Virus genome (UHGV): UHGV-0335559
From: a virus
Length of the DNA stretch: 23,334 nt
Strand: one strand, 5' to 3'
The translations under genes and the position numbers were made by a program. Below, piece by piece: positions 2,127 through 22,260 of the stretch. How positions within the stretch are numbered: the first letter of the stretch is position 1; every line of letters starts with the position of its first letter. A model generated the notes under the pieces. It worked only from the letters and a program-made list of their open reading frames with translations, had not been told where the DNA came from and did no database searches.

Positions 2127-2734
2127 GCGTTTACTCTCAGGTTATCAATTAAATGAATGGCCGAGGCCGGGAAATAATCCCCTCCGACAATAATGGCCTC
2201 CGGGGTGTAGGGATAAACCGTCAGGGCGTCGCCGTGATAGCATCCCGCACCGGCAAAAATGTTGCCGGTTGTACTTAAACTGATAGCCAGTCCCGTCAGA
2301 TGGCGGCTTGCCGGTTTTGCATCAGCAACGAGGCGCTCCAGCTCCTGATACATTTCCTCGGTAATACCCTGCTCAAGCACGCCAACAACGATACGGAACG
2401 TCCCCGGCTCCTCGTTGAGTTGCCACCACTCCCTCACCTCAATCAGATAGCCGAGCGGCTCCACCACACGGCGAATCGCACCAATAGTGCCCTTATGGCA
2501 GTGAATGAAATACGCATCGCGGATAACAGCGCGTTTTGTCGCTTCCGGCCACTTATCATCCCAGCGGTCAACCGAAAATGACCACGCCAGCCACGGCAGC
2601 AGATTTGCCGGACAGGTATCCGGGTTCCACAGCTCACGAATACTGACCGGCGTTTTTTCAATTTCCGCACAGGCTTTTGCGGCGGCGACCTCAAGCGGTG
2701 ATGAGCCGGTCGGCAGCAGTCGCGAATCACTCAT
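2123..2734 (-). CDS. I: Baseplate/tail protein gpI
   Basis: 203-aa ORF between J and H in P2 order. Overlaps J by 8 nt (translational coupling). Confidence 0.85.
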   Translation of the reverse strand: MSDSRLLPTGSSPLEVAAAKACAEIEKTPVSIRELWNPDTCPANLLPWLAWSFSVDRWDDKWPEATKRAVIRDAYFIHCHKGTIGAIRRVVEPLGYLIEVREWWQLNEEPGTFRIVVGVLEQGITEEMYQELERLVADAKPASRHLTGLAISLSTTGNIFAGAGCYHGDALTVYPYTPEAIIVGGDYFPASAIHLIDNLRVNA

Positions 2735-3635
2735 CCGAGCCTCCGGTCACGACACGGTATTCAGTACAGAAAGACGCCTGCGTACTGTTGAGCACGATGT
2801 CGGCCAGTGGTGCAGCCAGTTCGACACGCTGCACACCTTCCACATGCAAAGCGGCATAAATGGCAGACAGACGGATGTCACGCCCCAGCCGGTGCTGTGC
2901 CGTGATATACGCTTCCAGTTTTTTCACGGCGGCAGCGCGGATGGGTTCGCTTTCGGGACCAGGGTAAAGGTAAAGCGTGGCGTTTATCTGGTATTCAACA
3001 ATGGCGGCAGACTGCACAGTCACGCGGTCGGCCACCGGCCTGACGTCCTCGCCATTAAGGGCGTTACGCACCGCCGCCAGCAGGTCTTCGGATGCCACAC
3101 CGTTATTTTCACGTGACAGCACGGAGATGGTGACGCAGGCCGGAGACGGACTGGTGACAGAGATATCCGCGACACGCCCGTCGGCACTGCGACCATGATA
3201 CTGATAGGCTCCCACCGACCCGGCGACGCTTAAGCCTTCAAACGCCTGCTGAATACGCAGACGATAATCCGTGTCAGATTCCATCACTGCCGGTGTCGGC
3301 GGGATGGTCGAATCATCTGCCGGGGTGATAATCAGGCGCGTGGTGTTGTAATTGGCACCAATCACATCAAGGTCATTACCGGCGGCACAAGCCAGCATCA
3401 CCGCCCGTGCGGCCTCATTCACACGCTGACGCCAGATAAGCTCACGATAAGCATTTTCCTCCAGCAGTTTGACGAGAGGCTCCGATTCCAGCGTCAGGGT
3501 ACGGGCGACCGCCTCCTGCTGGTCTTCCGGGTAAAGGGAAATCAGTGTCGCCTTGCGTTCGGCAAGAATGGTTTCAAAGTCCAGCTCCTCGACCACATCC
3601 GGTGCGGGTAGCTGGTTCAGGTCGATAATCGGCAT
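2727..3635 (-). CDS. J: Baseplate assembly protein gpJ
   Basis: 302-aa ORF, same length as P2 gpJ as I recall it; position between W and I. Confidence 0.9.
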   Translation of the reverse strand: MPIIDLNQLPAPDVVEELDFETILAERKATLISLYPEDQQEAVARTLTLESEPLVKLLEENAYRELIWRQRVNEAARAVMLACAAGNDLDVIGANYNTTRLIITPADDSTIPPTPAVMESDTDYRLRIQQAFEGLSVAGSVGAYQYHGRSADGRVADISVTSPSPACVTISVLSRENNGVASEDLLAAVRNALNGEDVRPVADRVTVQSAAIVEYQINATLYLYPGPESEPIRAAAVKKLEAYITAQHRLGRDIRLSAIYAALHVEGVQRVELAAPLADIVLNSTQASFCTEYRVVTGGSDE

Positions 3636-3639
3636 GGTT

Positions 3640-3987
3640 TCAACTCATAGGGATGGTTAACGAAAGTGGCTGGCCGGTGTCGTTGTGCTGACCGGTTAAC
3701 GTGACCGTCATTCGCCCGTCAAAACTGCGCGCCGTGGTGACGGATGACAGGGTGACGCGGGGTTCCCATTTCAGCACGGCCATGTAACAGGCGACCTTAA
3801 TCTGCAACTCAAGCGCCGGGGTCTGCGGCTGGTCAATCATTGACGCCAGCAACGAGCCGTAATCACGACGCATCACCCGTGAGCCGACCGGTGTGCGCAG
3901 GATATCGCCGATACTCTGGCTGATATGCTCAAGGTCAGTGACAGTCAGGCCATCACTGCGATTCATTCCGAGATAACGCGCTGTCAT
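3640..3987 (-). CDS. W: Baseplate protein gpW (GPW/gp25 family)
   Basis: 115-aa ORF, length and position match P2 gpW. Confidence 0.9.
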   Translation of the reverse strand: MTARYLGMNRSDGLTVTDLEHISQSIGDILRTPVGSRVMRRDYGSLLASMIDQPQTPALELQIKVACYMAVLKWEPRVTLSSVTTARSFDGRMTVTLTGQHNDTGQPLSLTIPMS

Positions 3988-4619
3988 AGAGGACTCCCGG
4001 TTGTGCCGCCGCTGTCGCCGGGGTGTTTATGGGTATGCAGTACCTTACCGTTTGATGAGAGTTCACCGCCGGTGTGTTCAATGTTGCCGCGCATCGTCCC
4101 GCCCTTCTGCACTTCCAGCGTGCCGGTAATCAGCCTGTTGGTGCAGACCACCTCCGGTGTGTCCAGGGTGATGCGGGTTGATGCTTTCACCATGACCATC
4201 GGCACCGTGGCAGTAACAGAATCAGAAGCCGTCACGCTGGCCGTTTTAATTCCGCTTACCGTGAGTGCACTGGTTTCGGGTTCATACTCAATCACCGCCC
4301 CGTCAGGGAAACGGATATGCAGGGCATCCGCCGACGCAGACGGCGCGTGGTTATCGCCGGAATAAATCCCCGGCAGAACGAATGCCGTGTCGAGTTCACC
4401 GCCCACGGCCAGAATCAGCACCTGTTCCCCCACGGAAGGTGCCCACCATGTGCGCGAACGACCGGCGCGATGGGTCAGCCACTGAAGCCAGTCGGTGCAC
4501 ATGCCGCCGGTCTGCACACGGCAGCGACCGGCGTTAAGGTCGGTTTCGACGATAATGCCGGTGCGGATCATGTTACGCAGTGCGCGCGCGAGTTCCTGAA
4601 TATTTGCGAGAGTGTTCAT
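3984..4619 (-). CDS. V: Baseplate spike/assembly protein gpV
   Basis: 211-aa ORF, length and position match P2 gpV; overlaps W by 4 nt. Confidence 0.9.
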   Translation of the reverse strand: MNTLANIQELARALRNMIRTGIIVETDLNAGRCRVQTGGMCTDWLQWLTHRAGRSRTWWAPSVGEQVLILAVGGELDTAFVLPGIYSGDNHAPSASADALHIRFPDGAVIEYEPETSALTVSGIKTASVTASDSVTATVPMVMVKASTRITLDTPEVVCTNRLITGTLEVQKGGTMRGNIEHTGGELSSNGKVLHTHKHPGDSGGTTGSPL

Positions 4620-4685
4620 AACGGGAAGGATGCCGCCGGGTCATACCGGCGGCAATGTGACGATGAGGTGTCAGGAATGGCACAA

Positions 4686-5138
4686 CTAACGGTCGAGGTG
4701 AGCCAGAATAATCTCTTCAATCATCTGCACATCCTCACCGGTAAAGCCGAGCAGAGGACGCGCCGGATAATCAATTTTCTTACCGTCTTTCCGGTTTTCT
4801 TCCGACAGACCGAACTGATGCACGCTGGCGATTTTCGGTGACTTCCCGCCGTAAAACTCCATTGATGCCTGTTCCGGGCTGGCGCGGATATGCAAAAAAC
4901 GACTGGTGATAAGTTTCGCAAACATTTTTCGCTTAACACGACCAGTCTTTTTTCTGGCGCTCTGCTGCTGGCGTGGCGCGTAGGGTGTACCGTCCGGGGC
5001 TTTCTGAGCCATCACCCGACGCTGCTGACTCTGCCGCAGACGTTTCGCCAGTTCGGCACTCAGTCGCCGACGCCCTGACGGTGACAGCGACTCAATCAGT
5101 CCGGTCAGCCGGTCTTCAAAACGCTTAAACTCATTCAT
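4686..5138 (-). CDS. S: Tail completion / virion morphogenesis protein gpS
   Basis: 150-aa ORF downstream of R; length and order match P2. Confidence 0.85.
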   Translation of the reverse strand: MNEFKRFEDRLTGLIESLSPSGRRRLSAELAKRLRQSQQRRVMAQKAPDGTPYAPRQQQSARKKTGRVKRKMFAKLITSRFLHIRASPEQASMEFYGGKSPKIASVHQFGLSEENRKDGKKIDYPARPLLGFTGEDVQMIEEIILAHLDR

Positions 5139-5598
5139 CCCACTTGCTCACCAGTTCGCCATTGATATAAAGCTTCATCGGGCGGGTGACCGGCTCCGGC
5201 GGCGTGGGTTCCGGGATATTCTTCACATGCAGCGCGCCGTCCACCTCACTGACCAGCGTGCGTTCGGTCAGCATCAGGCTGATGCTGATATCAAAGCTGC
5301 TGTCATTGTTGATGTCTGCATAAAACGTGAAGCCCTTTTTCTGGCCTTCGTCGGTGGTCATGATGTCGGGCTGATTTTCCCGCAGCCACGCCAGCACCGG
5401 CACGATGAGCAGGTCAAAATCACCGGTAAAGTCGGTCACAATCACATTGAGCGTGTAACGCTTTTCGAATGACAGCGACGTCGCCAGTGTGGAGGCAATA
5501 CTCCCGTTATCCACGAATATCCGCAGCATCTCTGGACTGGTTTTCAGCACCGTGACGGCATCAGTCAGCGCCCTGCGCAGGCTGTCGGGTTTGAGCAT
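5131..5598 (-). CDS. R: Tail completion protein gpR
   Basis: 155-aa ORF; length and order match P2 gpR; overlaps S by 8 nt. Confidence 0.85.
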   Translation of the reverse strand: MLKPDSLRRALTDAVTVLKTSPEMLRIFVDNGSIASTLATSLSFEKRYTLNVIVTDFTGDFDLLIVPVLAWLRENQPDIMTTDEGQKKGFTFYADINNDSSFDISISLMLTERTLVSEVDGALHVKNIPEPTPPEPVTRPMKLYINGELVSKWDE

Positions 5599-5851
5599 CG
5601 TTTTCGTCCTGACAGTGTTTAATCATTTTTACCTGGCTGGCACAGCGTGCCAGCGCGTTCTCAAGCTGCCGGATATCGGCACTTAAATCGCCGTTCGTCT
5701 CCGGGTCACTGCCCGGCATCGGGCAAAGACTCACTTTCGGGCAGGCGTTGGCGACAATCACTGGCGTCAGTGCAGGCCGGACGCTGGTGCAACCGGCGCA
5801 CAGCATCAGGCAGGTCAGCGCCGTACCAGCGGCGAAAATCTTCGTTTTCAT
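5561..5851 (-). CDS. lysC: Outer-membrane spanin lipoprotein (LysC/Rz1-like), embedded out of frame in lysB and running into R
   Basis: Internal Met of the 109-aa ORF gives MKTKIFAAGTALTCLMLCAGC..., a signal peptide with lipobox cysteine, followed by a Pro-rich mature part. 96 aa, as I recall for P2 LysC. Start chosen at the internal Met, not the ORF-track start. Confidence 0.7.
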   Translation of the reverse strand: MKTKIFAAGTALTCLMLCAGCTSVRPALTPVIVANACPKVSLCPMPGSDPETNGDLSADIRQLENALARCASQVKMIKHCQDENDAQTRQPAQGAD

Positions 5852-6131
5852 TAAGTAACCTCGTGATGGTTTTCTCGCGCTGTGCTTCACGCTTCGCGGC
5901 GTTCTCCAGTTCCTGACGCAGTGCTACCTGCGCCAGCTCGTTTTTGTCTGCCCTGGTGAGGGCAACATGAAGCTGATTTTTCAGCATGGTGATGGTCGTC
6001 TGCTGCCCGTTGGCGACGTTGCTCGCCCTGTCCAGTGAGGTGCGCAGGCTGGCGTTTTCATGCTTCGCCAGAAACAGACCGGCCACCGCCAGTGATAACA
6101 ACACAACCAGCACAATCATCAGCTTTGACAT
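5706..6131 (-). CDS. lysB: Inner-membrane spanin (LysB/Rz-like)
   Basis: 141-aa ORF with N-terminal TM segment (MSKLMIVLVVLLSLAVAGLFLA) and a coiled-coil-like, charged remainder. Position after lysA. Confidence 0.8.
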   Translation of the reverse strand: MSKLMIVLVVLLSLAVAGLFLAKHENASLRTSLDRASNVANGQQTTITMLKNQLHVALTRADKNELAQVALRQELENAAKREAQREKTITRLLNENEDFRRWYGADLPDAVRRLHQRPACTDASDCRQRLPESESLPDAGQ

Positions 6132-6544
6132 GGTTCCCGCCCCTCAAAACGCTGACGACAGGCCGTGCGTATCAGCCGGAAGAACACCGACGCCACGAGG
6201 TAAATCAGCGCGGTAAAAATCCACCCGGCAGCGACCAGCGAGATAAACGTCGCCACCATCACCACCAGAGCCGCCGCCCGTCTGCGCCACGGCACCGGCT
6301 GCAAAAACAGCGACGCGACAATCTTCACGGCCAGCGATTCCGGCGGCAGCTCCCGCCCGTAGCGTTCCAGCACATACTCAGTGGCATACACGCCGACACC
6401 ACCGGCAACCACACAGATAACCGTCGCCAGAATCGCCCAGGCGGCGACAAAATTGACGGCCACGCTCTGCGGGTAAATCAGGGACAGTGCCAGCATCAGC
6501 GCCAGCGACACGTTCAGCATCAGTGAAAGGGATAATTTCTTCAT
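6119..6544 (-). CDS. lysA: LysA membrane protein (lysis timing/holin-associated)
   Basis: 141-aa ORF with several hydrophobic segments; sits between K and lysB as in P2. Confidence 0.75.
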   Translation of the reverse strand: MKKLSLSLMLNVSLALMLALSLIYPQSVAVNFVAAWAILATVICVVAGGVGVYATEYVLERYGRELPPESLAVKIVASLFLQPVPWRRRAAALVVMVATFISLVAAGWIFTALIYLVASVFFRLIRTACRQRFEGREPCQS

Positions 6545-6558
6545 GGTGTTTACTCCGT

Positions 6559-7056
6559 TTAAGCCGGTACGCCGCCAGCGGTACGCCAGACGGTGACCAG
6601 TTTTTCCAGTGAATGCTCACGCTGACCGTAACCGGCACCCGGCAGGGACGCCCAGATATTGCGACAGCGTGAAATGGCGCGCTCAATGCGTCCCGCCCGG
6701 ATGTCATCCAGTGCACCGCGTTCGCGGATCAACTGAATGGCGAGTCTGTCCTGTGACAACGGGCTGAAATCAGGCAGGGCAAGCTGTTTACGGTAGTGCG
6801 GCCAGAACAGGTAAAGCTGCTGATAGCGACCGGAGGCCGTGGATTTTTCACCGCGACGGTTAAACACCTTCGCCGGTCGGCCATGTGCGAACGGGTGGTC
6901 ACTGTAGTCGGTGAAAATTTCCGGCTTTCCGTCCAGTCCGGTGACTATCACGTCATAGCCCCGGTTTTTCGTCAGCGGATGATTCGCCGTCCCTTCGGAC
7001 ACGGCCAGCATGTCGAGAAAGGCGGCGATATTCTGATGCGTGTTAATTACCGGCAT
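6559..7056 (-). CDS. K: Endolysin (lysozyme-like, P2 gpK)
   Basis: 165-aa ORF MPVINTHQNIAAFLDMLAVSEGT...; phage lysozyme-like N-terminus. Its start overlaps the stop of the holin gene. Confidence 0.9.
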   Translation of the reverse strand: MPVINTHQNIAAFLDMLAVSEGTANHPLTKNRGYDVIVTGLDGKPEIFTDYSDHPFAHGRPAKVFNRRGEKSTASGRYQQLYLFWPHYRKQLALPDFSPLSQDRLAIQLIRERGALDDIRAGRIERAISRCRNIWASLPGAGYGQREHSLEKLVTVWRTAGGVPA

Positions 7057-10886: not shown

Positions 10887-11059
10887 TGTCAGGAGTCCTG
10901 AATAGTGATTAGAGGAGTCACATGTCGGCATCAGTTTCCCGACGATGCGCATCCTCCGCCATCAGTCCCGGATGGCTTATCACTGACACAACAGCACCTT
11001 AGCGAATCGCGGGACGCGACTCAGTAGCCTTGCCGTGTATTCATCACGGCGAGGTATTC
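10887..11059. promoter_or_regulatory. Divergent late-promoter region between O and P
   Basis: 173-bp gap between divergently transcribed O and P, as in P2 where the Ogr-activated late promoters lie. I could not find a clean TGT-N12-ACA dyad by eye, so exact elements are unassigned. Confidence 0.35.
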
Positions 11060-12829
11060 ATGACCATCACCACAGACACCACTCTTTTACACGACCCGCG
11101 TCGTCAGGCGGCGCTGCTGTACTGGCAGGGGTTTTCCGTGCCGCAGATTGCCGCCATGTTGCAGATGAAACGCCCGACGGTGCAGAGCTGGAAACAGCGC
11201 GACGGCTGGGACAGCGTTGCCCCCATCAGCCGTGTCGAAATGAGTCTGGAAGCGCGGCTGACCCAGCTCATCATCAAACCGCAGAAAACCGGCGGTGACT
11301 TCAAGGAAATTGACCTGCTCGGACGCCAGATTGAACGACTGGCACGGGTCAACCGTTACAGTCAGACCGGCAACGAGGCAGACCTTAATCCGAACGTCGC
11401 TAACCGCAACAAAGGCGGGCGTCGCAAACCGAAAAAGAATTTTTTCAGTGACGAGGCCATCGAAAAGCTGGAGCAGATTTTCTTTGAGCAGTCTTTCGAA
11501 TATCAGTTGCACTGGTATCGCGCCGGGCTTGAGCACCGCATCCGCGATATCCTGAAATCCCGCCAGATTGGCGCAACGTTTTATTTTTCCCGCGAGGCGC
11601 TGCTGCGCGCCCTGAAAACCGGTCATAACCAGATTTTTCTGTCGGCCAGTAAAACGCAGGCGTATGTGTTCCGCGAATACATCATCGCCTTTGCCCGGCT
11701 GGTTGACGTTGACCTGACCGGTGACCCGATTGTCCTGGGCAATAACGGCGCAAAACTGATTTTTCTCGGCACCAACTCCAACACCGCACAGAGCCATAAC
11801 GGTGACCTGTACGTCGACGAGATTTTCTGGATCCCGAATTTTCAGGTACTGCGTAAGGTGGCATCAGGTATGGCCTCACAGAGTCACCTGCGCTCGACCT
11901 ATTTCTCCACCCCGTCCACGCTGGCGCACGACGCCTATCCGTTCTGGTCGGGTGAACTGTTCAACCGGGGACGCGCCAGCGCCGCCGAACGCGTGGAAAT
12001 CGACGTCAGTCATAACGCCCTTGCCGGTGGGCTTCTCTGTGCGGACGGCCAGTGGCGGCAGATTGTCACCATTGAGGACGCCCTGAAAGGTGGCTGCACG
12101 CTGTTCGACATTGAGCAGCTTAAACGCGAAAACAGCGCCGACGATTTTAAAAACCTGTTCATGTGTGAATTTGTTGACGACAAGGCGTCGGTATTCCCGT
12201 TCGAGGAGCTGCAGCGCTGCATGGTCGATGTGATGGAGGAATGGGAGGACTTTGCCCCGTTCGCCGACCATCCGTTCGGCTCTCGTCCTGTCTGGATTGG
12301 CTACGACCCGTCACACACCGGCGACAGTGCCGGGTGCGTCGTGCTCGCGCCGCCGGTGGTCTCTGGTGGCAAGTTCCGCATGCTGGAGCGCCACCAGTGG
12401 AAGGGCATGGATTTTGCAGCACAGGCAGAGGGCATCCGCAAGCTGACCGAGAAATACAACGTCGAATACATCGGCATTGACGCAACCGGCCTCGGTCTCG
12501 GCGTGTTCCAGCTGGTGCGCTCATTTTACCCGGCGGCACGCGGCATCCGTTACACACCTGAAATGAAAACCGCAATGGTACTCAAGGCGAAAGACACCAT
12601 TCGCCGTGGCTGTCTGGAGTACGACGCCGGAGCAACCGACGTCACGCAGTCGTTTATGTCCATCCGCAAAACCATGACCAGCAGCGGGCGCTGCGCCACC
12701 TATGAGGCCAGCCGCACCGAGGAAGCCAGCCACGCCGATATCGCATGGGCGACCATGCACGCCCTGTTAAACGAACCGCTTTCTGCCGGTAGCGGCATGC
12801 AGCCTAAATCTATTCTGGAGTTCAACTAA
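11060..12829 (+). CDS. P: Terminase ATPase (large) subunit gpP
   Basis: Start set at MTITTDTTLLHDPRRQAALLYWQGF... with GAGG 7 nt upstream, giving 589 aa. The ORF-track start at 11030 lacks a ribosome binding site. Confidence 0.9.
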   Translation: MTITTDTTLLHDPRRQAALLYWQGFSVPQIAAMLQMKRPTVQSWKQRDGWDSVAPISRVEMSLEARLTQLIIKPQKTGGDFKEIDLLGRQIERLARVNRYSQTGNEADLNPNVANRNKGGRRKPKKNFFSDEAIEKLEQIFFEQSFEYQLHWYRAGLEHRIRDILKSRQIGATFYFSREALLRALKTGHNQIFLSASKTQAYVFREYIIAFARLVDVDLTGDPIVLGNNGAKLIFLGTNSNTAQSHNGDLYVDEIFWIPNFQVLRKVASGMASQSHLRSTYFSTPSTLAHDAYPFWSGELFNRGRASAAERVEIDVSHNALAGGLLCADGQWRQIVTIEDALKGGCTLFDIEQLKRENSADDFKNLFMCEFVDDKASVFPFEELQRCMVDVMEEWEDFAPFADHPFGSRPVWIGYDPSHTGDSAGCVVLAPPVVSGGKFRMLERHQWKGMDFAAQAEGIRKLTEKYNVEYIGIDATGLGLGVFQLVRSFYPAARGIRYTPEMKTAMVLKAKDTIRRGCLEYDAGATDVTQSFMSIRKTMTSSGRCATYEASRTEEASHADIAWATMHALLNEPLSAGSGMQPKSILEFN

Positions 12830-12830
12830 A

Positions 12831-13877
12831 ATGGGTAAACAAAAATCCCGTAAAGCCAACGCACAAAAGGCCAGCAAACCACAACAACTGACCGCCAGCG
12901 CACCGCCAAAAACGACAGCGTTCACCTTCGGCGAGCCGGTGCCGGTACTCGATAAGCGCGACATTCTGGATTACGTCGAGTGCATCAGTAACGGCAAATG
13001 GTACGAGCCGCCGGTCAGCTTCTCAGGGCTGGCAAAGAGCCTGCGCTCTGCCGTGCATCACAGCTCGCCAATTTATGTTAAGCGTAACGTGCTCGCGAGC
13101 ACCTACATTCCGCACCCGTTGTTATCCCGTCAGGATTTCAGCCGCTTTGCGCTCGATTATCTGGTGTTCGGTAACGCCTTTCTTGAGCAGCGCCACAGCG
13201 TCACCGGCCAGTTAATCAAACTGCTGGCCTCGCCAGCCAAATACACCCGACGCGGAGTCGACGATTCGATTTTCTGGTTTGTGGAAAACTTCACCCAGCC
13301 GCACGAGTTCGCGCCTGATACCGTGTTTCACCTGCTGGAGCCCGACATTAATCAGGAGATTTACGGTCTGCCGGAATATCTCAGCGCGCTTAATTCCGCT
13401 TGGCTGAATGAATCCGCGACGCTGTTCCGCCGCAAGTATTATCAGAACGGCGCGCACGCAGGCTACATCATGTATGTGACTGACCCGGCGCAGAGCGCGA
13501 CCGACGTCGAATCGCTGCGCGAGGCGATGCGCAACTCAAAAGGGCTCGGCAACTTTAAGAACCTGTTTTTCTACGCTCCCGGCGGAAAACCGGACGGCAT
13601 CAAAATCGTGCCACTGAGCGAGGTCGCCACAAAGGATGACTTTTTCAACATCAAGAAGGCCAGTGCCGCCGATCTGATGGACGCGCACCGCGTACCGTTC
13701 CAGCTCATGGGCGGCAAGCCCGAGAATATCGGTTCACTCGGTGATGTTGAGAAGGTGGCAAAGGTATTTGTGCGCAACGAGCTGTCGCCGCTACAGGACA
13801 GGTTCAGGGAGGTAAATGACTGGCTCGGCATGGAGGTCATCAGATTCAAAGAGTACACCCTCGACAACCCAGAATAA
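12831..13877 (+). CDS. Q: Portal (capsid vertex) protein gpQ
   Basis: 348-aa ORF starting 2 nt after the P stop; position and size match P2 gpQ. Confidence 0.9.
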   Translation: MGKQKSRKANAQKASKPQQLTASAPPKTTAFTFGEPVPVLDKRDILDYVECISNGKWYEPPVSFSGLAKSLRSAVHHSSPIYVKRNVLASTYIPHPLLSRQDFSRFALDYLVFGNAFLEQRHSVTGQLIKLLASPAKYTRRGVDDSIFWFVENFTQPHEFAPDTVFHLLEPDINQEIYGLPEYLSALNSAWLNESATLFRRKYYQNGAHAGYIMYVTDPAQSATDVESLREAMRNSKGLGNFKNLFFYAPGGKPDGIKIVPLSEVATKDDFFNIKKASAADLMDAHRVPFQLMGGKPENIGSLGDVEKVAKVFVRNELSPLQDRFREVNDWLGMEVIRFKEYTLDNPE

Positions 13878-13907
13878 CTTAGGCCGCCACAATCTCTGCG
13901 CTCATTA

Positions 13908-13936
13908 TTGAAGATGCAATCTGCGAAAGCTATAGT
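13908..13936 (+). promoter_or_regulatory. Candidate sigma-70 promoter for the cargo gene
   Basis: TTGAAG (13908-13913), 17-bp spacer, TATAGT (13931-13936); about 18 bp upstream of the ATG at 13955. No clear Shine-Dalgarno, so the mRNA would have a short leader. Confidence 0.45.
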
Positions 13937-13954
13937 GCATCGAATATCAAAACA

Positions 13955-14959
13955 ATGGGCGCGGAGATTAATATTTTGGAAACTGATTTTAAAATAACCC
14001 TCGAAGGTTTCGCTACTGAGCAAGAAGCAAATAATATCGGTAATTTCACACTAGAAGCTATCCGAGCTTTAACAAAAAATCTCAATCTTGATATCTCCAA
14101 ATTAAAATGCGTGATTGTTTCCTATAACTTCAGTGAAGCTCTTCAAAAGGTAACATCCTCTTACCAACACAAATCCCCTAGTTCATTTACCAATAGCAAA
14201 CAGGGCGCAGCCGTCGGGCAGTTAGTAACAAAAATTGGCAATGATGGGCTATGTGAAGAATATACCCTTGTGCTATCGATTGATTTTTTTGTTGAGCTTT
14301 TCAATGATGGTAGCTTCTTAAAACTGAAAGAAGAAGGATACCTCGCAGTCATCCATCGCATTCACCATGAATTAGTGCACGTACATGAAAAAAACTTACT
14401 AACATGCTTAGCCCAAAACTTTACAGTCAACGAGTATGGTAGCGCGCTTCTTATCTCAGCCACGCGTGCATGGTCTGAATATCTCGCTAATTACATGTCT
14501 TCGGGGTCTGCCCCTCAAGAAACTATCGATTTATTTTTAGAGAATCTTGACACTGTTGTAAATGAAGTATCTGACGAGATTGAAAAACTCATCTGGGGTT
14601 ATAAGTACGGTAATATTTCTCTGAATGACATGTATCTTGAAGTAAAAAAACGTATCAGGCTAATCATCAACTCTTATGCTTATGCGATGGGTTATGTCCA
14701 TTCTCTAAACATCAATATTAAAGAATACGATCCAAAGCTATCCCTTACACTATCCAACTCAAAGATAAGATATCAATTATCAGAATTAGGCATTGCTTTT
14801 CAGAATCTTTATGGGAAGTTTAATGACCAGCACATTACAGGTTTTGGTGATTTTCGGGAGATAACAATAATCATTGATGAAATATTCAAGCAGTTTGGGC
14901 TTGTTTTAGAGTGTCCCGATTGGTCTGGCGACGGTGAACTCTACATACATGTAAATTAG
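13955..14959 (+). CDS. Hypothetical cargo protein, 334 aa, HExxH motif (IHRIHHELVHVHEKN); no recognisable family
   Basis: Long uninterrupted ORF in an island of about one-third G+C (flanking phage genes are well above 50%). Sits between the portal gene and cos, where P2 as I recall it has only about 100 bp. No Walker A, no TM segment, no HTH that I can see. Confidence 0.6.
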   Translation: MGAEINILETDFKITLEGFATEQEANNIGNFTLEAIRALTKNLNLDISKLKCVIVSYNFSEALQKVTSSYQHKSPSSFTNSKQGAAVGQLVTKIGNDGLCEEYTLVLSIDFFVELFNDGSFLKLKEEGYLAVIHRIHHELVHVHEKNLLTCLAQNFTVNEYGSALLISATRAWSEYLANYMSSGSAPQETIDLFLENLDTVVNEVSDEIEKLIWGYKYGNISLNDMYLEVKKRIRLIINSYAYAMGYVHSLNINIKEYDPKLSLTLSNSKIRYQLSELGIAFQNLYGKFNDQHITGFGDFREITIIIDEIFKQFGLVLECPDWSGDGELYIHVN

Positions 14960-15178
14960 TTTAATCATAGTAGAAACATAATTAGCAGTTTGAATCCTGC
15001 CACTCCTGTAAAGCCGCTGCTCCTGGTGGCTTTTCCATGCACACCACCATCACGCATCAGATGCGTCTCACGCGCACGAACACACTCGACCACCAACGAA
15101 CCAGCAGCGACCACGACAGCGCCATCACGACGCGCTCAGAGGATAATTTTTATTATTACGCATCACTGCTGGCGCGCA

Positions 15179-15197
15179 ATGCTTTCCCCGCCACGCC
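15179..15197 (-). other. cos-like site (19-nt cohesive-end sequence of P2/186-type phages)
   Basis: Minus strand reads GGCGTGGCGGGGAAAGCAT, matching the 19-nt cohesive end as I recall it for 186 (P2: GGCGAGGCGGGGAAAGCAC). Its orientation relative to Q is the same as at the P2 left end. Confidence 0.55.
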
Positions 15198-15353
15198 TGC
15201 CCGCTTTATGGGGCGGTTTTAATGCAGTTGCATGACAACTCTGGATCCGCGCTAGCTCTGGCGGCGCACGGACAGAACGGGCAAGACTGACGCATGCAAA
15301 ACCATGCACCTAATGCATGCACGACTAAAAAACGGGAAATTCGCGGAAAAATG

Positions 15354-15390
15354 GCATAAAAAAACCGGCATTCAGGGTGCCGGTTTTAGT
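15354..15390. terminator. Bidirectional rho-independent terminator
   Basis: A-tract (15356-15364), 7-bp stem ACCGGCA (15364-15370) / TGCCGGT (15378-15384) with a 7-nt loop, then TTTT. U-runs follow the hairpin on both strands; it would end the minus-strand tum-like operon before cos. Confidence 0.55.
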
Positions 15391-16256: not shown

Positions 16257-16490
16257 TTAATGCAGCCAGCTATCGTCCTCCCATACCTGCTGCATGATTT
16301 CCATTACTCGTTTTTTATCTTCGTCCAGTTTCAAACCGCTTAGTTCAACGCCATTAGCGGAGCCCTTGCGAATTCGGATAGCAGTCTTTGGGTAAATAGG
16401 TTGAAGATTGCGGTACAGTTCAGCCTCAAGTGCATCCAATGTTGCCTGACTAATTTTTTGCTCTTTATCCAACGTGATATTGATTCTCAT
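16257..16490 (-). CDS. DinI-like protein (DinI / 186 Tum C-terminal domain family)
   Basis: 77 aa, MRINITLDKEQKISQATLDALEAELYRNLQPIYP...VMEIMQQVWEDDSWLH; resembles E. coli DinI (MRIEVTIAK...ALAGELSRRIQ...) in pattern and length. Weak Shine-Dalgarno; the ATG is one codon after the in-frame stop of the upstream ORF. Confidence 0.75.
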   Translation of the reverse strand: MRINITLDKEQKISQATLDALEAELYRNLQPIYPKTAIRIRKGSANGVELSGLKLDEDKKRVMEIMQQVWEDDSWLH

Positions 16491-16493
16491 AAT

Positions 16494-16676
16494 CTAATCA
16501 GCCTTATAAAAATTATCATCTTCGGTTTCGTTATTTTCGCTGTTTGCTAGGTCTGCAATGAGAGTGAGCGCGAGCTTTAAGTCTGATGGCTTGCAGTTTG
16601 CAATCAGAGATACCTCGGCAATAAATTGCACACAAGCCCACTTTTGCTGCGTTCGGCTGAAATGTTCGCCAACCAT
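16494..16676 (-). CDS. Small protein, possible N-terminal (antirepressor) part of a Tum-like protein
   Basis: 60-aa ORF with strong Shine-Dalgarno (GGGAGGG) and a LexA box just upstream. Same reading frame as the DinI-like ORF, separated from it by a single TAG. Confidence 0.5.
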   Translation of the reverse strand: MVGEHFSRTQQKWACVQFIAEVSLIANCKPSDLKLALTLIADLANSENNETEDDNFYKAD

Positions 16677-16695: not shown

Positions 16696-16715
16696 TACTG
16701 TATATTTATACAGTA
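16696..16715. promoter_or_regulatory. LexA box (SOS operator) overlapping the promoter of the tum/DinI-like operon
   Basis: TACTGTATATTTATACAGTA: CTGT (16698-16701), 8 nt, ACAG (16710-16713), one central mismatch to the consensus TACTGTATATATATACAGTA. Lies about 20 nt upstream of the start codon at 16676. Confidence 0.75.
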
Positions 16716-16789: not shown

Positions 16790-19012
16790 TTACCCATGTA
16801 TTGGTTTTGATGCTTCAGCCATCGCCGCAACACGATTAAGGATTTTCCGAGCTTTAGCCTCATGCGATGGTGCTGCGGAAAATATTTCTCCTTTGGCCGT
16901 TCCGCGTAGCCATTTACCATCAAAACAACTTTTACCACCGGCCATCAGGTGCAGGGCTTCGCCCCGGCTGATATTAATGCCGGTTGTCAGATGTATCTCA
17001 TCGATAGTTTTAGCTATAGCTGCGTTTTGCTCATCCGTTCCGTGGATGAATTTTCGCCGTGCTGCTGGCTTTTGCTTCCTGAGTCGGTTGGTCAATTCTC
17101 GTCTTTCACGCCGACTCAGTGGTTTTGTTAAATCCAGTATCGGTGGATCGCTTTCGCTTCCCGTACAGTTATTGACAGAACTCCGAGGGACGGCTTTGCC
17201 GTCCTGAAGGTCAACGGCCAAATCAACAGCACGCTTCGGAACAATCTTCCACTGAGTGAGCCGGGTTAAAATCGGGCTTCCTGCACCTATGGAGGAATCG
17301 TAGACCCCCTTAATACATACCGTTTCCTCACCGTACTGATTAAGCTCGGTGCGCGGTTCATACAGTGTGCGCACCTGTAAATCATCGCGACGGACAAACG
17401 GCCCACCCTGAGCATTAACATAACCAGCCCAGTCACCAGCGTCGGCGGCATCATGGACGGCGGCAAACTCAACGCTCAGACCGTGCGCGGTTTCGGTATC
17501 AGCGAGGCGACGCAACTCACGGTAAACCGTCACCGGCGCACCACCAATAAACTGAAACTGACGGATGTGCCAGCGCGCAGCCCATGCTGAAACGGCGGGG
17601 GCTGTCTCTTTCAGCAGCTCACCGCTTTCATCATCGGTTTCACCATCGAGAGCATAACCGTCGATATTTTTTGAAATGTATTTAGCAACATAGCCGGTTG
17701 CGCTGCCTTTCTCCGGGTCAATGGACTCGGCGTGGAAACGTGCTTTTTTGGATTTATCGCTTTTCAGTTCGTGGCGGTCTTCTTTCCATGCGTATTTACG
17801 GACGATGGAGCGAACATATTCAACATCTTCCGGCAGCATGAACATCAGCATGTGCCAGTGTGGAGTGCCGTCGTGATGGGGCTCGGCGACACGAATACCG
17901 AAAATACGGACATCTTCCCGATGTAGTTTGGCACGGATACGCGCCCAGATACCGGTTAGATAGTTTTGCGTGTCAGCCGGGCTGGCACCGCTCCATTTGC
18001 TGTTACGGTAACCGGCTTTAGTCGTGGCGTGATATTTTGACGGCGCGGTTAGAGTGTAAAACTCACCGACATAACCGAGCTCATTACAGATGTTTTCAAA
18101 CCCACGAATGCGGGTCATGAGCTCACAGCGGCGAATCGCAGGGTTAGCAACTGAGCCATCATATTTTTCAATTAGGCTGATACGGTTGCCGTCTTCGTCT
18201 TCGAGATCCAGACCTTTGAGAAATTCACGAGTGCGGCGCTTTTGTTCACGCCAGTCAGTCACGCAGTTTTTACTCGCGTAAGTGTTTTTTTTCTTACTGA
18301 CGTTGCCGACTGCAATTTGCAGGTGTTCGCGCCACGTAGCTGCAACACGGCGCAAACGACCGCGCCACCACCCATCGTTAAACATTTTGGCGATAGCCGG
18401 TGCGATTTCATCCGCACCGACATATTTTTTTTCAACCCGCTCCCAATGTGGTGGGATAACGTTGAATTGGAGGGAAATAAAGCCAGCACGAATATACCAG
18501 GTGTACAGCGTTTTAAGCTCGCCGAATCCGTGGTCATTAATGTTGGCAAGTTCACCACGAATGAAATTAGCAATATCAGCGGCCAACAGGTCAACATCAG
18601 CGCGCGACATGTCCGGGAGACGGTTATATTGGGCGACCATATTAACCATGCGTGACGACAGATATTGCATTTGCTGAGTATCAAAATGACTTCCAAAAAC
18701 AGCGGTTGATACCTTGCTGTTGATACCAGCGCATTCGTATTTTTTTGCGACCAGTTCAAGACGCGGCAATGCCTTTTTGCAGAAGCTGATTAAAAATGCA
18801 TTGGCTCGTTGACTACCCTGATTTTGCTCCAGCACCGCAGCAGTGCGATAAACATCTAACCGCACGCAGTCGGGCTGGAGAGAAAGCACCTTTTTTGCAT
18901 GCAGCAAAGCCGCGAACATACGGTCGCGGCGATGCTGTTGCTCATAAGTAAGGTATGGGCTGGAGATTGCCGACCGTGGGACGTTCCACGGATAAGCGAA
19001 TTGAACAGCCAA
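16790..19012 (-). CDS. A: Replication initiation endonuclease gpA (rolling-circle initiator)
   Basis: 740-aa ORF with HUH-type motif (EPHHDGTPHWHMLMF) and a tyrosine region (GYVAKYISKNIDGYALDG), as in the P2 A protein family. Confidence 0.9.
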   Translation of the reverse strand: MAVQFAYPWNVPRSAISSPYLTYEQQHRRDRMFAALLHAKKVLSLQPDCVRLDVYRTAAVLEQNQGSQRANAFLISFCKKALPRLELVAKKYECAGINSKVSTAVFGSHFDTQQMQYLSSRMVNMVAQYNRLPDMSRADVDLLAADIANFIRGELANINDHGFGELKTLYTWYIRAGFISLQFNVIPPHWERVEKKYVGADEIAPAIAKMFNDGWWRGRLRRVAATWREHLQIAVGNVSKKKNTYASKNCVTDWREQKRRTREFLKGLDLEDEDGNRISLIEKYDGSVANPAIRRCELMTRIRGFENICNELGYVGEFYTLTAPSKYHATTKAGYRNSKWSGASPADTQNYLTGIWARIRAKLHREDVRIFGIRVAEPHHDGTPHWHMLMFMLPEDVEYVRSIVRKYAWKEDRHELKSDKSKKARFHAESIDPEKGSATGYVAKYISKNIDGYALDGETDDESGELLKETAPAVSAWAARWHIRQFQFIGGAPVTVYRELRRLADTETAHGLSVEFAAVHDAADAGDWAGYVNAQGGPFVRRDDLQVRTLYEPRTELNQYGEETVCIKGVYDSSIGAGSPILTRLTQWKIVPKRAVDLAVDLQDGKAVPRSSVNNCTGSESDPPILDLTKPLSRRERRELTNRLRKQKPAARRKFIHGTDEQNAAIAKTIDEIHLTTGINISRGEALHLMAGGKSCFDGKWLRGTAKGEIFSAAPSHEAKARKILNRVAAMAEASKPIHG

Positions 19013-21921: not shown

Positions 21922-22260
21922 ATGAAAAAGTTTATATTTGCGATAGTCTGCATTGCACTTTCTTCCTCAGCCATAGCCGCTGAGAAGTTTAAAGAGATAG
22001 ACGGCGCTGCATATGGTGACAAGTGGCCTCTAACCTTTGAAAAGGCAAAGGTATCATGTGTTAACCGTGCTTATGCTTTTGTGTATGACATCAAAACTGA
22101 TGATAGATATCCTCTGAATGGCATGGCGGTAGATGCTGTTAAATCAGGAAAGCTGGAGGGGTCTAACTTAGATGACGTATGGAAGGATGACCCTGAGTAT
22201 GACGGCGTTAAAATTTCAATTTCACCGGTGATTGATGCCGCTACAGCCCTTTGTAATTAA
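21922..22260 (+). CDS. Small secreted protein (112 aa) between cI and int; possible lysogenic-conversion gene
   Basis: AAGGAG Shine-Dalgarno 7 nt upstream; N-terminal signal peptide MKKFIFAIVCIALSSSAIAAEKF; one Cys near each end of the mature part. Confidence 0.6.
   Translation: MKKFIFAIVCIALSSSAIAAEKFKEIDGAAYGDKWPLTFEKAKVSCVNRAYAFVYDIKTDDRYPLNGMAVDAVKSGKLEGSNLDDVWKDDPEYDGVKISISPVIDAATALCN

Follow-up and report, generated by a model that had tools for sequence, protein, structure and literature searches.

The locus and its candidate promoter

The locus described here lies in a stretch of viral DNA of 23,334 nucleotides (nt; UHGV virus genome UHGV-0335559), which was analysed in silico and is referred to below as the window. 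The window belongs to the P2 family (Peduoviridae) and is of the 186/PSP3 type, with its gene order reversed relative to the 186 map. Downstream of the portal gene, which is the last gene of the terminase–portal late operon, the plus strand carries a low-GC accessory gene, hereafter the cargo gene, and between the two genes stand two hexamers, TTGAAG and TATAGT, as the candidate −35 and −10 elements of a sigma-70 promoter (Table 1). A sequence-only reading of the window had interpreted these hexamers as a promoter dedicated to the cargo gene; its coordinates for both hexamers and the 17-nt spacer were exact, and its distance of 31 bp from the portal stop to the −35 hexamer was correct, as the portal stop ends at position 13877. 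The spacer is within the 16–18 nt range of sigma-70 promoters, and the total hexamer match is 9 of 12 positions.

Table 1. Features of the candidate promoter, the cassette and the surrounding phage genome. Positions refer to the window, except in the last row, where they refer to the loci named.
Feature	Position	Strand	Remarks
−35 hexamer TTGAAG	13908..13913	+	matches 4/6, including TTG
−10 hexamer TATAGT	13931..13936	+	matches 5/6; T1, A2 and T6 present
Predicted transcription start	13943..13944	+	A residues 7–8 nt past the −10; from the usual −10 to +1 distance
Invariant block AATCTCTGC	13891..13899	+	P2-context loci only; about −52 to −44 relative to the predicted start
Shine-Dalgarno GGAG	13963..13966	+	9 nt before TTG 13976
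Cargo coding sequence from the conserved TTG	13976..14959	+	327 amino acids (aa), GC about 37%; predicted gluzincin-like zinc metallopeptidase
In-frame ATG used by annotators	13955..13957	+	no Shine-Dalgarno upstream; 18 nt past the −10
Low-GC cargo open reading frame (ORF) as annotated	13955-14959	+	
Cassette	about 13878-15010		~1.13 kb, GC about 37%
GCCGCCA, relic of the tW left arm	13883..13889	+	upstream insertion junction; alignment with 81EVA and phage 186
tW-like intrinsic terminator	15010..15036	+	AAAGCCGCU / GGUGGCUUU hairpin, then UUCC
Tail and head genes			first block in window order
Terminase ORF	11030-12829		follows the tail and head genes
Portal (P2 Q / 186 W homologue)	12831..13877	+	ORF list, Pfam Phage_portal; portal in ON470592 and RefSeq annotation
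cos cohesive-end 19-mer	15179..15197	−	2 mismatches to P2 cos, 0 expected by chance; aligned to 186 cos
SOS operon with DinI gene			between cos and replication gene A
Replication gene A	16790-19012	−	
CII, CI repressor and integrase			after replication gene A in window order
Sister-lineage arrangement	2619-3987 (L025, Yersinia); 1639-2996 (L042); 1624-2984 (L044)		

Conservation of the hexamers across genomic contexts

Homologues of the cargo gene were collected, and the corresponding DNA was taken from genome records, assemblies and viral contigs. In nine diverged loci from E. coli, Citrobacter, Salmonella, Pectobacterium, Klebsiella and Serratia marcescens, the cargo gene occupies the same place as in the window and encodes proteins that are 80–100% identical (P2-context loci), and TTGAAG-17-TATAGT was invariant in all of them. 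None of the 12 hexamer columns varied, versus 28 of the 86 other upstream columns (P ~0.009), and the fully invariant registers (4 of 70) were adjacent to one another and centred on the promoter site. The hexamers also agreed in 12 of 13 further viral contigs, so that all but one of the ~20 P2-context loci retain both. The sole exception, L037 (IMGVR_UViG_2880015946_000003), has TATAGA as its −10 hexamer upstream of position 2022 and is a natural candidate promoter-down variant. Upstream of the hexamers, the block AATCTCTGC was invariant in the nine diverged loci, showed one variant each in L033 and L036, and was absent from the island-context loci described below; its role may be that of a regulator or UP-like site, unless it is merely left over from the insertion junction.

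A second context was provided by homologues in Enterobacter, Buttiauxella and Serratia fonticola (59–63% protein identity), in which the gene resides in non-phage islands. The gene is divergent from a resolvase gene in these islands and must therefore have a promoter of its own, since no read-through from the upstream neighbour is possible. TTGAGG-17-TATAGT, TTGAGA-17-TATAGT and TTGAAA-18-TATAGT were found, one in each of the three loci, with the end of the −10 hexamer 39, 39 and 37 nt before the TTG start codon, compared with 39 nt in the window. TATAGT(G) is identical between P2-context and island-context loci, and the conserved site is the best sigma-70 match in the 200-nt upstream region of each island locus. 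The island hexamers are identical to those of the window at 11 of 12 and 10 of 12 positions, versus a background of 33% (binomial P = 3.7e-5 and 4.4e-4), while the spacer matches that of the window at 4–5 of 17 positions and the remaining upstream DNA is unrelated (33% identity). Such conservation of the hexamers amid unrelated DNA is what a functional promoter moving together with its gene would be expected to leave. The upstream regions of the distant marine homologues (L006–L012) could not be aligned, showed no common promoter, and are uninformative in this respect.

The dedication of the promoter to the cargo gene, as the sequence-only reading had it, is borne out by these comparisons: the hexamers were conserved with the gene in two unrelated genomic contexts, and in the islands, where the upstream neighbour is divergent, the best candidate was the homologous site. 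From this conservation, we conclude that the two hexamers probably form a working sigma-70 promoter belonging to a mobile single-gene cassette in the hairpin of the late terminator tW.

The same hexamers could instead be an inactive chance match, in which case the cargo gene would be transcribed solely as the tail of the late terminase–portal operon. A match of 9 of 12 is no rarer than in shuffled sequence: a 7-kb scan returned 5 sites of comparable quality versus 7.4 ± 2.8 in shuffles, and at least one comparable right-strand site arose in 8.8% of the dinucleotide shuffles of the 98-nt upstream region, a rate that fell to 1% when a 17-nt spacer and TTG were required. The lack of a terminator from the portal stop to the cargo gene also fits this explanation, as do the Yersinia, L042 and L044 loci, in which the gene is in a late-operon position without the hexamers. 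It is at odds, however, with the hexamers being kept in register in the islands amid an unrelated spacer and unrelated flanks (P ~4e-5 and 4e-4), with the absence there of a co-oriented upstream gene from which read-through could come, and with the substitutions among P2-context loci, which avoid the hexamers. We therefore consider a chance match unlikely.

Several observations weigh against a working promoter. The 9/12 match alone is not significant, being no rarer than chance, and the site (13931-13936) has no TG extended −10 and no obvious UP element. The invariance among the P2-context loci, which are related by descent, is partly phylogenetic inertia, and the island evidence consists of three loci from two lineages. 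In L037, the critical T at −7 is lost. Moreover, in a sister lineage comprising a Yersinia locus (L025) and the viral loci L042 and L044, the portal gene is followed by an overlapping 108-aa Ogr/Delta zinc-finger gene and, ~50 nt later, by the cargo gene, with GGAG-TTG kept and the promoter hexamers absent. Judging from this arrangement, the cargo gene can evidently do without the TTGAAG/TATAGT promoter, and co-transcription appears to be viable. Finally, AT-rich DNA acquired horizontally is often silenced by H-NS in enterobacteria, and the activity of the promoter in the lysogen could be low for this reason. As the sister lineage illustrates, the cargo gene family has made its way into P2-like phages on at least two occasions, each time at another point.

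It is also conceivable that the ATTGA(A/G) and TATAGTG blocks constitute a recombinase or regulator site at the cassette boundary, conserved for mobility or regulation and not as a promoter. The homology between P2-context and island-context loci starts almost exactly at the −35 block, i.e., at the cassette edge, the island copies adjoin a serine recombinase/resolvase gene, and a further invariant block is present at 13891-99. On the other side, the blocks match both sigma-70 hexamers at the optimal spacing of 17–18 nt and lie 37–39 nt from a start codon preceded by a Shine-Dalgarno sequence, the resolvase is absent in the phage context, and the two blocks are neither inverted nor direct repeats of each other. 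The 6-bp inverted repeat that flanks the spacer, GATGCA (13912-17) and TGCATC (13936-41), is disrupted in Salmonella and Klebsiella and has no counterpart in the islands, which speaks against a boundary site and also led us to reject the repeat as an operator. We regard a boundary site as very improbable; the sigma-70 promoter remains our preferred interpretation.

Start codon and leader of the cargo gene

The annotated cargo ORF starts at an ATG, and most homologues in the family alignment start at the position of its codon 8 (ME.D / LE.D), which in the window is an in-frame TTG at 13976. At the Shine-Dalgarno position, GGAG, GAGG or AGGAG is found in most enterobacterial and several marine loci, and the combination GGAG-N9-TTG is shared by an Alteromonadaceae locus of 53% identity, the islands and Yersinia. 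Enterobacter and Yersinia have no counterpart of the upstream ATG, and in Buttiauxella it is not in the reading frame. In the AlphaFold model of the protein, which has a pLDDT (predicted local distance difference test) score of 90.4 overall, residues 1–7 are the sole low-confidence, disordered segment (pLDDT <50). The ATG at 13955 is thus probably not the start codon, and the GenBank and RefSeq annotations based on it are probably seven codons too long. The TTG start is conserved in nearly all enterobacterial homologues and in one Alteromonadaceae homologue, the other marine homologues having ATG; conservation of this weak codon may reflect selection for low translation.

With translation from TTG 13976 and transcription from ~13943, the leader would be ~33 nt long and would include the Shine-Dalgarno sequence. 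The sequence-only reading had placed the start codon about 18 bp after the −10 hexamer, which is right for the annotated ATG but not for the conserved TTG, and its description of a very short leader without a Shine-Dalgarno sequence has to be abandoned, as it followed from taking ATG 13955 as the start. RNA folding of 13870-13960 and of the predicted leader region 13943-14000 revealed no significant structure (z = −0.23 and +0.65, respectively), and interpretations as a terminator, attenuator or riboswitch were rejected on this basis. Rfam and tRNA scans of the window yielded no matches, and hence no known RNA element at the promoter site.

Insertion of the cassette within the late terminator

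In phage 186 (U32222 annotation), tW starts 8 nt past the portal stop, with cos coming next. When the window was aligned with 186 and the cargo-less prophage of E. coli 81EVA, the portal 3′ end, the tW-like hairpin, a CA-rich tract and cos all corresponded, and ~1.13 kb of AT-rich DNA proved to be inserted within the tW hairpin; unlike in 186, the portal stop and the terminator are separated by this foreign DNA, and the hairpin sequence is changed. The GC content of the cassette is 32–42%, compared with 54–58% in the surrounding phage DNA. The GCCGCCA relic at the upstream junction is decayed in other P2-context loci, and no hairpin forms at its position (13883-13889). The terminator after the cargo gene, a complete variant hairpin with a U-run, is homologous in position to the phage tW and terminates the cassette transcript as well as the late operon; other P2-context loci have a cleaner tW-like hairpin, AAGCCGCT-N7-AGCGGCTTTT. 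The position of the cos 19-mer places the cargo gene on its portal side.

A downstream hairpin, TGGAGAT(G/A)CCA...GTATCTC(T/C)ATTA, is common to the Enterobacter island L023 (~4035-4060) and Yersinia L025 (~4035-4065), which suggests that in these lineages the cassette also carries its own terminator.

A hairpin scan and folding found no terminator-like hairpin between the portal stop and the cargo gene, and the cargo gene should therefore also form the 3′ end of the terminase–portal late transcript. Independence from the late operon, another element of the sequence-only reading, consequently holds in part: the gene appears to have an additional promoter of its own, but late read-through into it is expected in the absence of a terminator before it.

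Morons, in the concept of Juhala and Hendrix, are reportedly autonomous promoter–gene–terminator units located between genes that are adjacent in related phages. Like a moron, the cargo unit comprises one gene whose base composition departs from that of the phage, and it separates the portal gene from tW/cos, which adjoin each other in 186, PSP3, the Yersinia phages and E. coli 81EVA. It also has its own conserved, putative sigma-70-type promoter and is followed by an intrinsic terminator. Unlike in morons, the insertion is placed ahead of the late terminator, in fact inside it, so that the unit is not insulated from late transcription, and its transcript may end at a terminator that belongs to the phage (tW) and did not arrive with the cassette.

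The locus corresponds to the cos-proximal gpA–gpQ hotspot of P2-like phages (PMC9122126). Like the cargo of this hotspot, such as old and tin in P2 (PMC9122126), the cargo gene is situated between gpQ and gpA next to cos; unlike old and tin, which are on the gpA side of cos, its cassette is on the portal side, inside tW. In Pectobacterium polaris (L018), genes with the conflict-system-type domains AAA_23, MC5 and CTD9 lie on the other side of the cargo gene (4378-7005), and the hotspot stacks several cargo units in this locus.

The cargo protein

The motifs HHExxH and WSEYxAN were invariant in the alignment of the cargo family. H138, E139 and H142 were invariant in 27 sequences and are located on helix 126–148 of the AlphaFold model; E175 of WSEY, on helix 160–181, is invariant and a candidate third zinc ligand, and E145 is likewise invariant. 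The combination of HHExxH with a downstream invariant Glu in WSEY resembles that of gluzincins (the catalytic domain of M1 aminopeptidases, M30, M9 and M4). In fold, too, the predicted peptidase is similar to known gluzincin catalytic domains. It differs from gluzincins in that sequence identity to them is ~10%, in that no Pfam or NCBIfam model recognises it, and in an extra C-terminal helical half. Searches of Pfam, PADLOC, NCBIfam and PDB sequences with the cargo protein returned no match, PHROGs gave matches only to families of unknown function, and weak zincin-type matches were all that the BFVD viral fold search returned.

Phages, resolvase islands and chromosomal sites all harbour the cargo gene as a solitary unit, at times with conflict-system genes beside it, and no regulator gene accompanied the cassette in any context. 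Clusters P0010 and P0011 were each present on at least 1000 Salmonella contigs. Our literature searches found no paper describing the cargo protein or its promoter. An identical protein is listed as System #76 (51 occurrences, no domain; Table S5B) among the E. coli P2 hotspot loci, and this system is absent from Table S2 of evaluated systems (PMC9122126). In that study, cargo systems of the hotspot were cloned under their native promoters; of those tested, over one-third had anti-phage activity (PMC9122126). A putative defence role of the cargo is plausible. The 'Peptidase + TM' system pFR104 (E. coli TA280, Rousset), one of the systems tested there, was considered as a possible identity of the cargo and rejected, because its insert sequence is absent from all loci compared and the cargo peptides appear only in Table S5, not in Table S2.

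Other features of the window

The real start of the terminase is probably ATG 11060, giving 589 aa, as called in related loci. A near-perfect LexA box, TACTGTATATTTATACAGTA (16696-16715), with one mismatch to the consensus and 0 expected by chance, lies between gene A and a minus-strand operon consisting of a 60-aa ORF (16494-16676) and a DinI-family gene (16257-16490); this arrangement corresponds to the SOS-controlled p95/tum layout annotated in phage 186. A DUF2511 ORF of 112 aa (21922-22260) is located between the CI repressor gene (end 21912) and the integrase gene (start 22285), all co-oriented, and looks like a second accessory gene, inside the lysogenic cI–int transcript; unlike the cargo gene at 13976..14959, it has no space for a promoter of its own. 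The 61-aa 'hypothetical protein' WP_000557532, annotated at 15037-15222 in GenBank and RefSeq, extends over the tract from tW to cos, including the cos 19-mer; this gene call is probably spurious. Finally, a strong 12-bp hairpin, AAAACCGGCA-N-TGCCGGTTTT (15361-15387), with A- and T-runs on its flanks, resembles a terminator acting in both directions; it is located on the gpA side of cos.

Proposed expression of the cassette and its implications

If the hexamers act as a promoter, sigma-70 RNA polymerase would start transcription at ~13943 and produce an mRNA whose ~33-nt leader carries the GGAG Shine-Dalgarno sequence. Translation would begin at the conserved weak TTG 13976, by which the level of the predicted zinc peptidase is probably kept low, and the transcript would terminate at the tW-like hairpin (15010-15036), ahead of cos. 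The gene would thus receive two inputs, namely, constitutive expression from its own promoter, presumably in the lysogen, and late read-through during lytic growth.

A variant of this scheme is that the promoter is real and yet silenced in the lysogen, by H-NS acting on the AT-rich cassette or by a repressor, and fires only under particular conditions. A cassette of 32–42% GC in a phage of 54–58% GC is typical of H-NS targets, the conserved weak TTG suggests that low expression of a possibly toxic peptidase has been selected for, and the invariant block at 13891-99 could be a regulator site. However, the surroundings of the promoter contain no operator-like repeat that is kept from one context to another, and the cassette travels without a regulator gene in each of them. 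We judge silencing to be improbable, to the same degree as a chance match.

More speculatively, the promoter, the TTG-start gene and the terminator might together represent a minimal, self-sufficient mobile defence cassette. The gluzincin-like zinc peptidase, produced at a low level, would then be a new single-protein anti-phage system that hops between resolvase-linked islands, chromosomal sites and P2/186-type phages, where it would have used two different insertion points close to the portal gene. Its two-input expression, resulting from insertion inside the late terminator, would be constitutive in the lysogen and boosted once the prophage enters lytic growth. This is a tentative proposal that we consider less likely than not. 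The architecture as such is that of an ordinary classical moron in a known hotspot, and the current understanding of phage gene regulation is unchanged by these results.

The analysis provides a corrected start codon for the cargo gene, TTG 13976 in place of ATG 13955, the protein in databases being probably seven residues too long. It also defines the cassette boundaries and the native promoter fragment for System #76, a candidate defence gene, and shows the cassette to lie inside the late terminator, between the portal gene and cos, where it would also receive late transcription. If the promoter is indeed active, the cargo gene would provide a lysogen-expressed accessory function in a widespread family of enterobacterial P2/186-type prophages.
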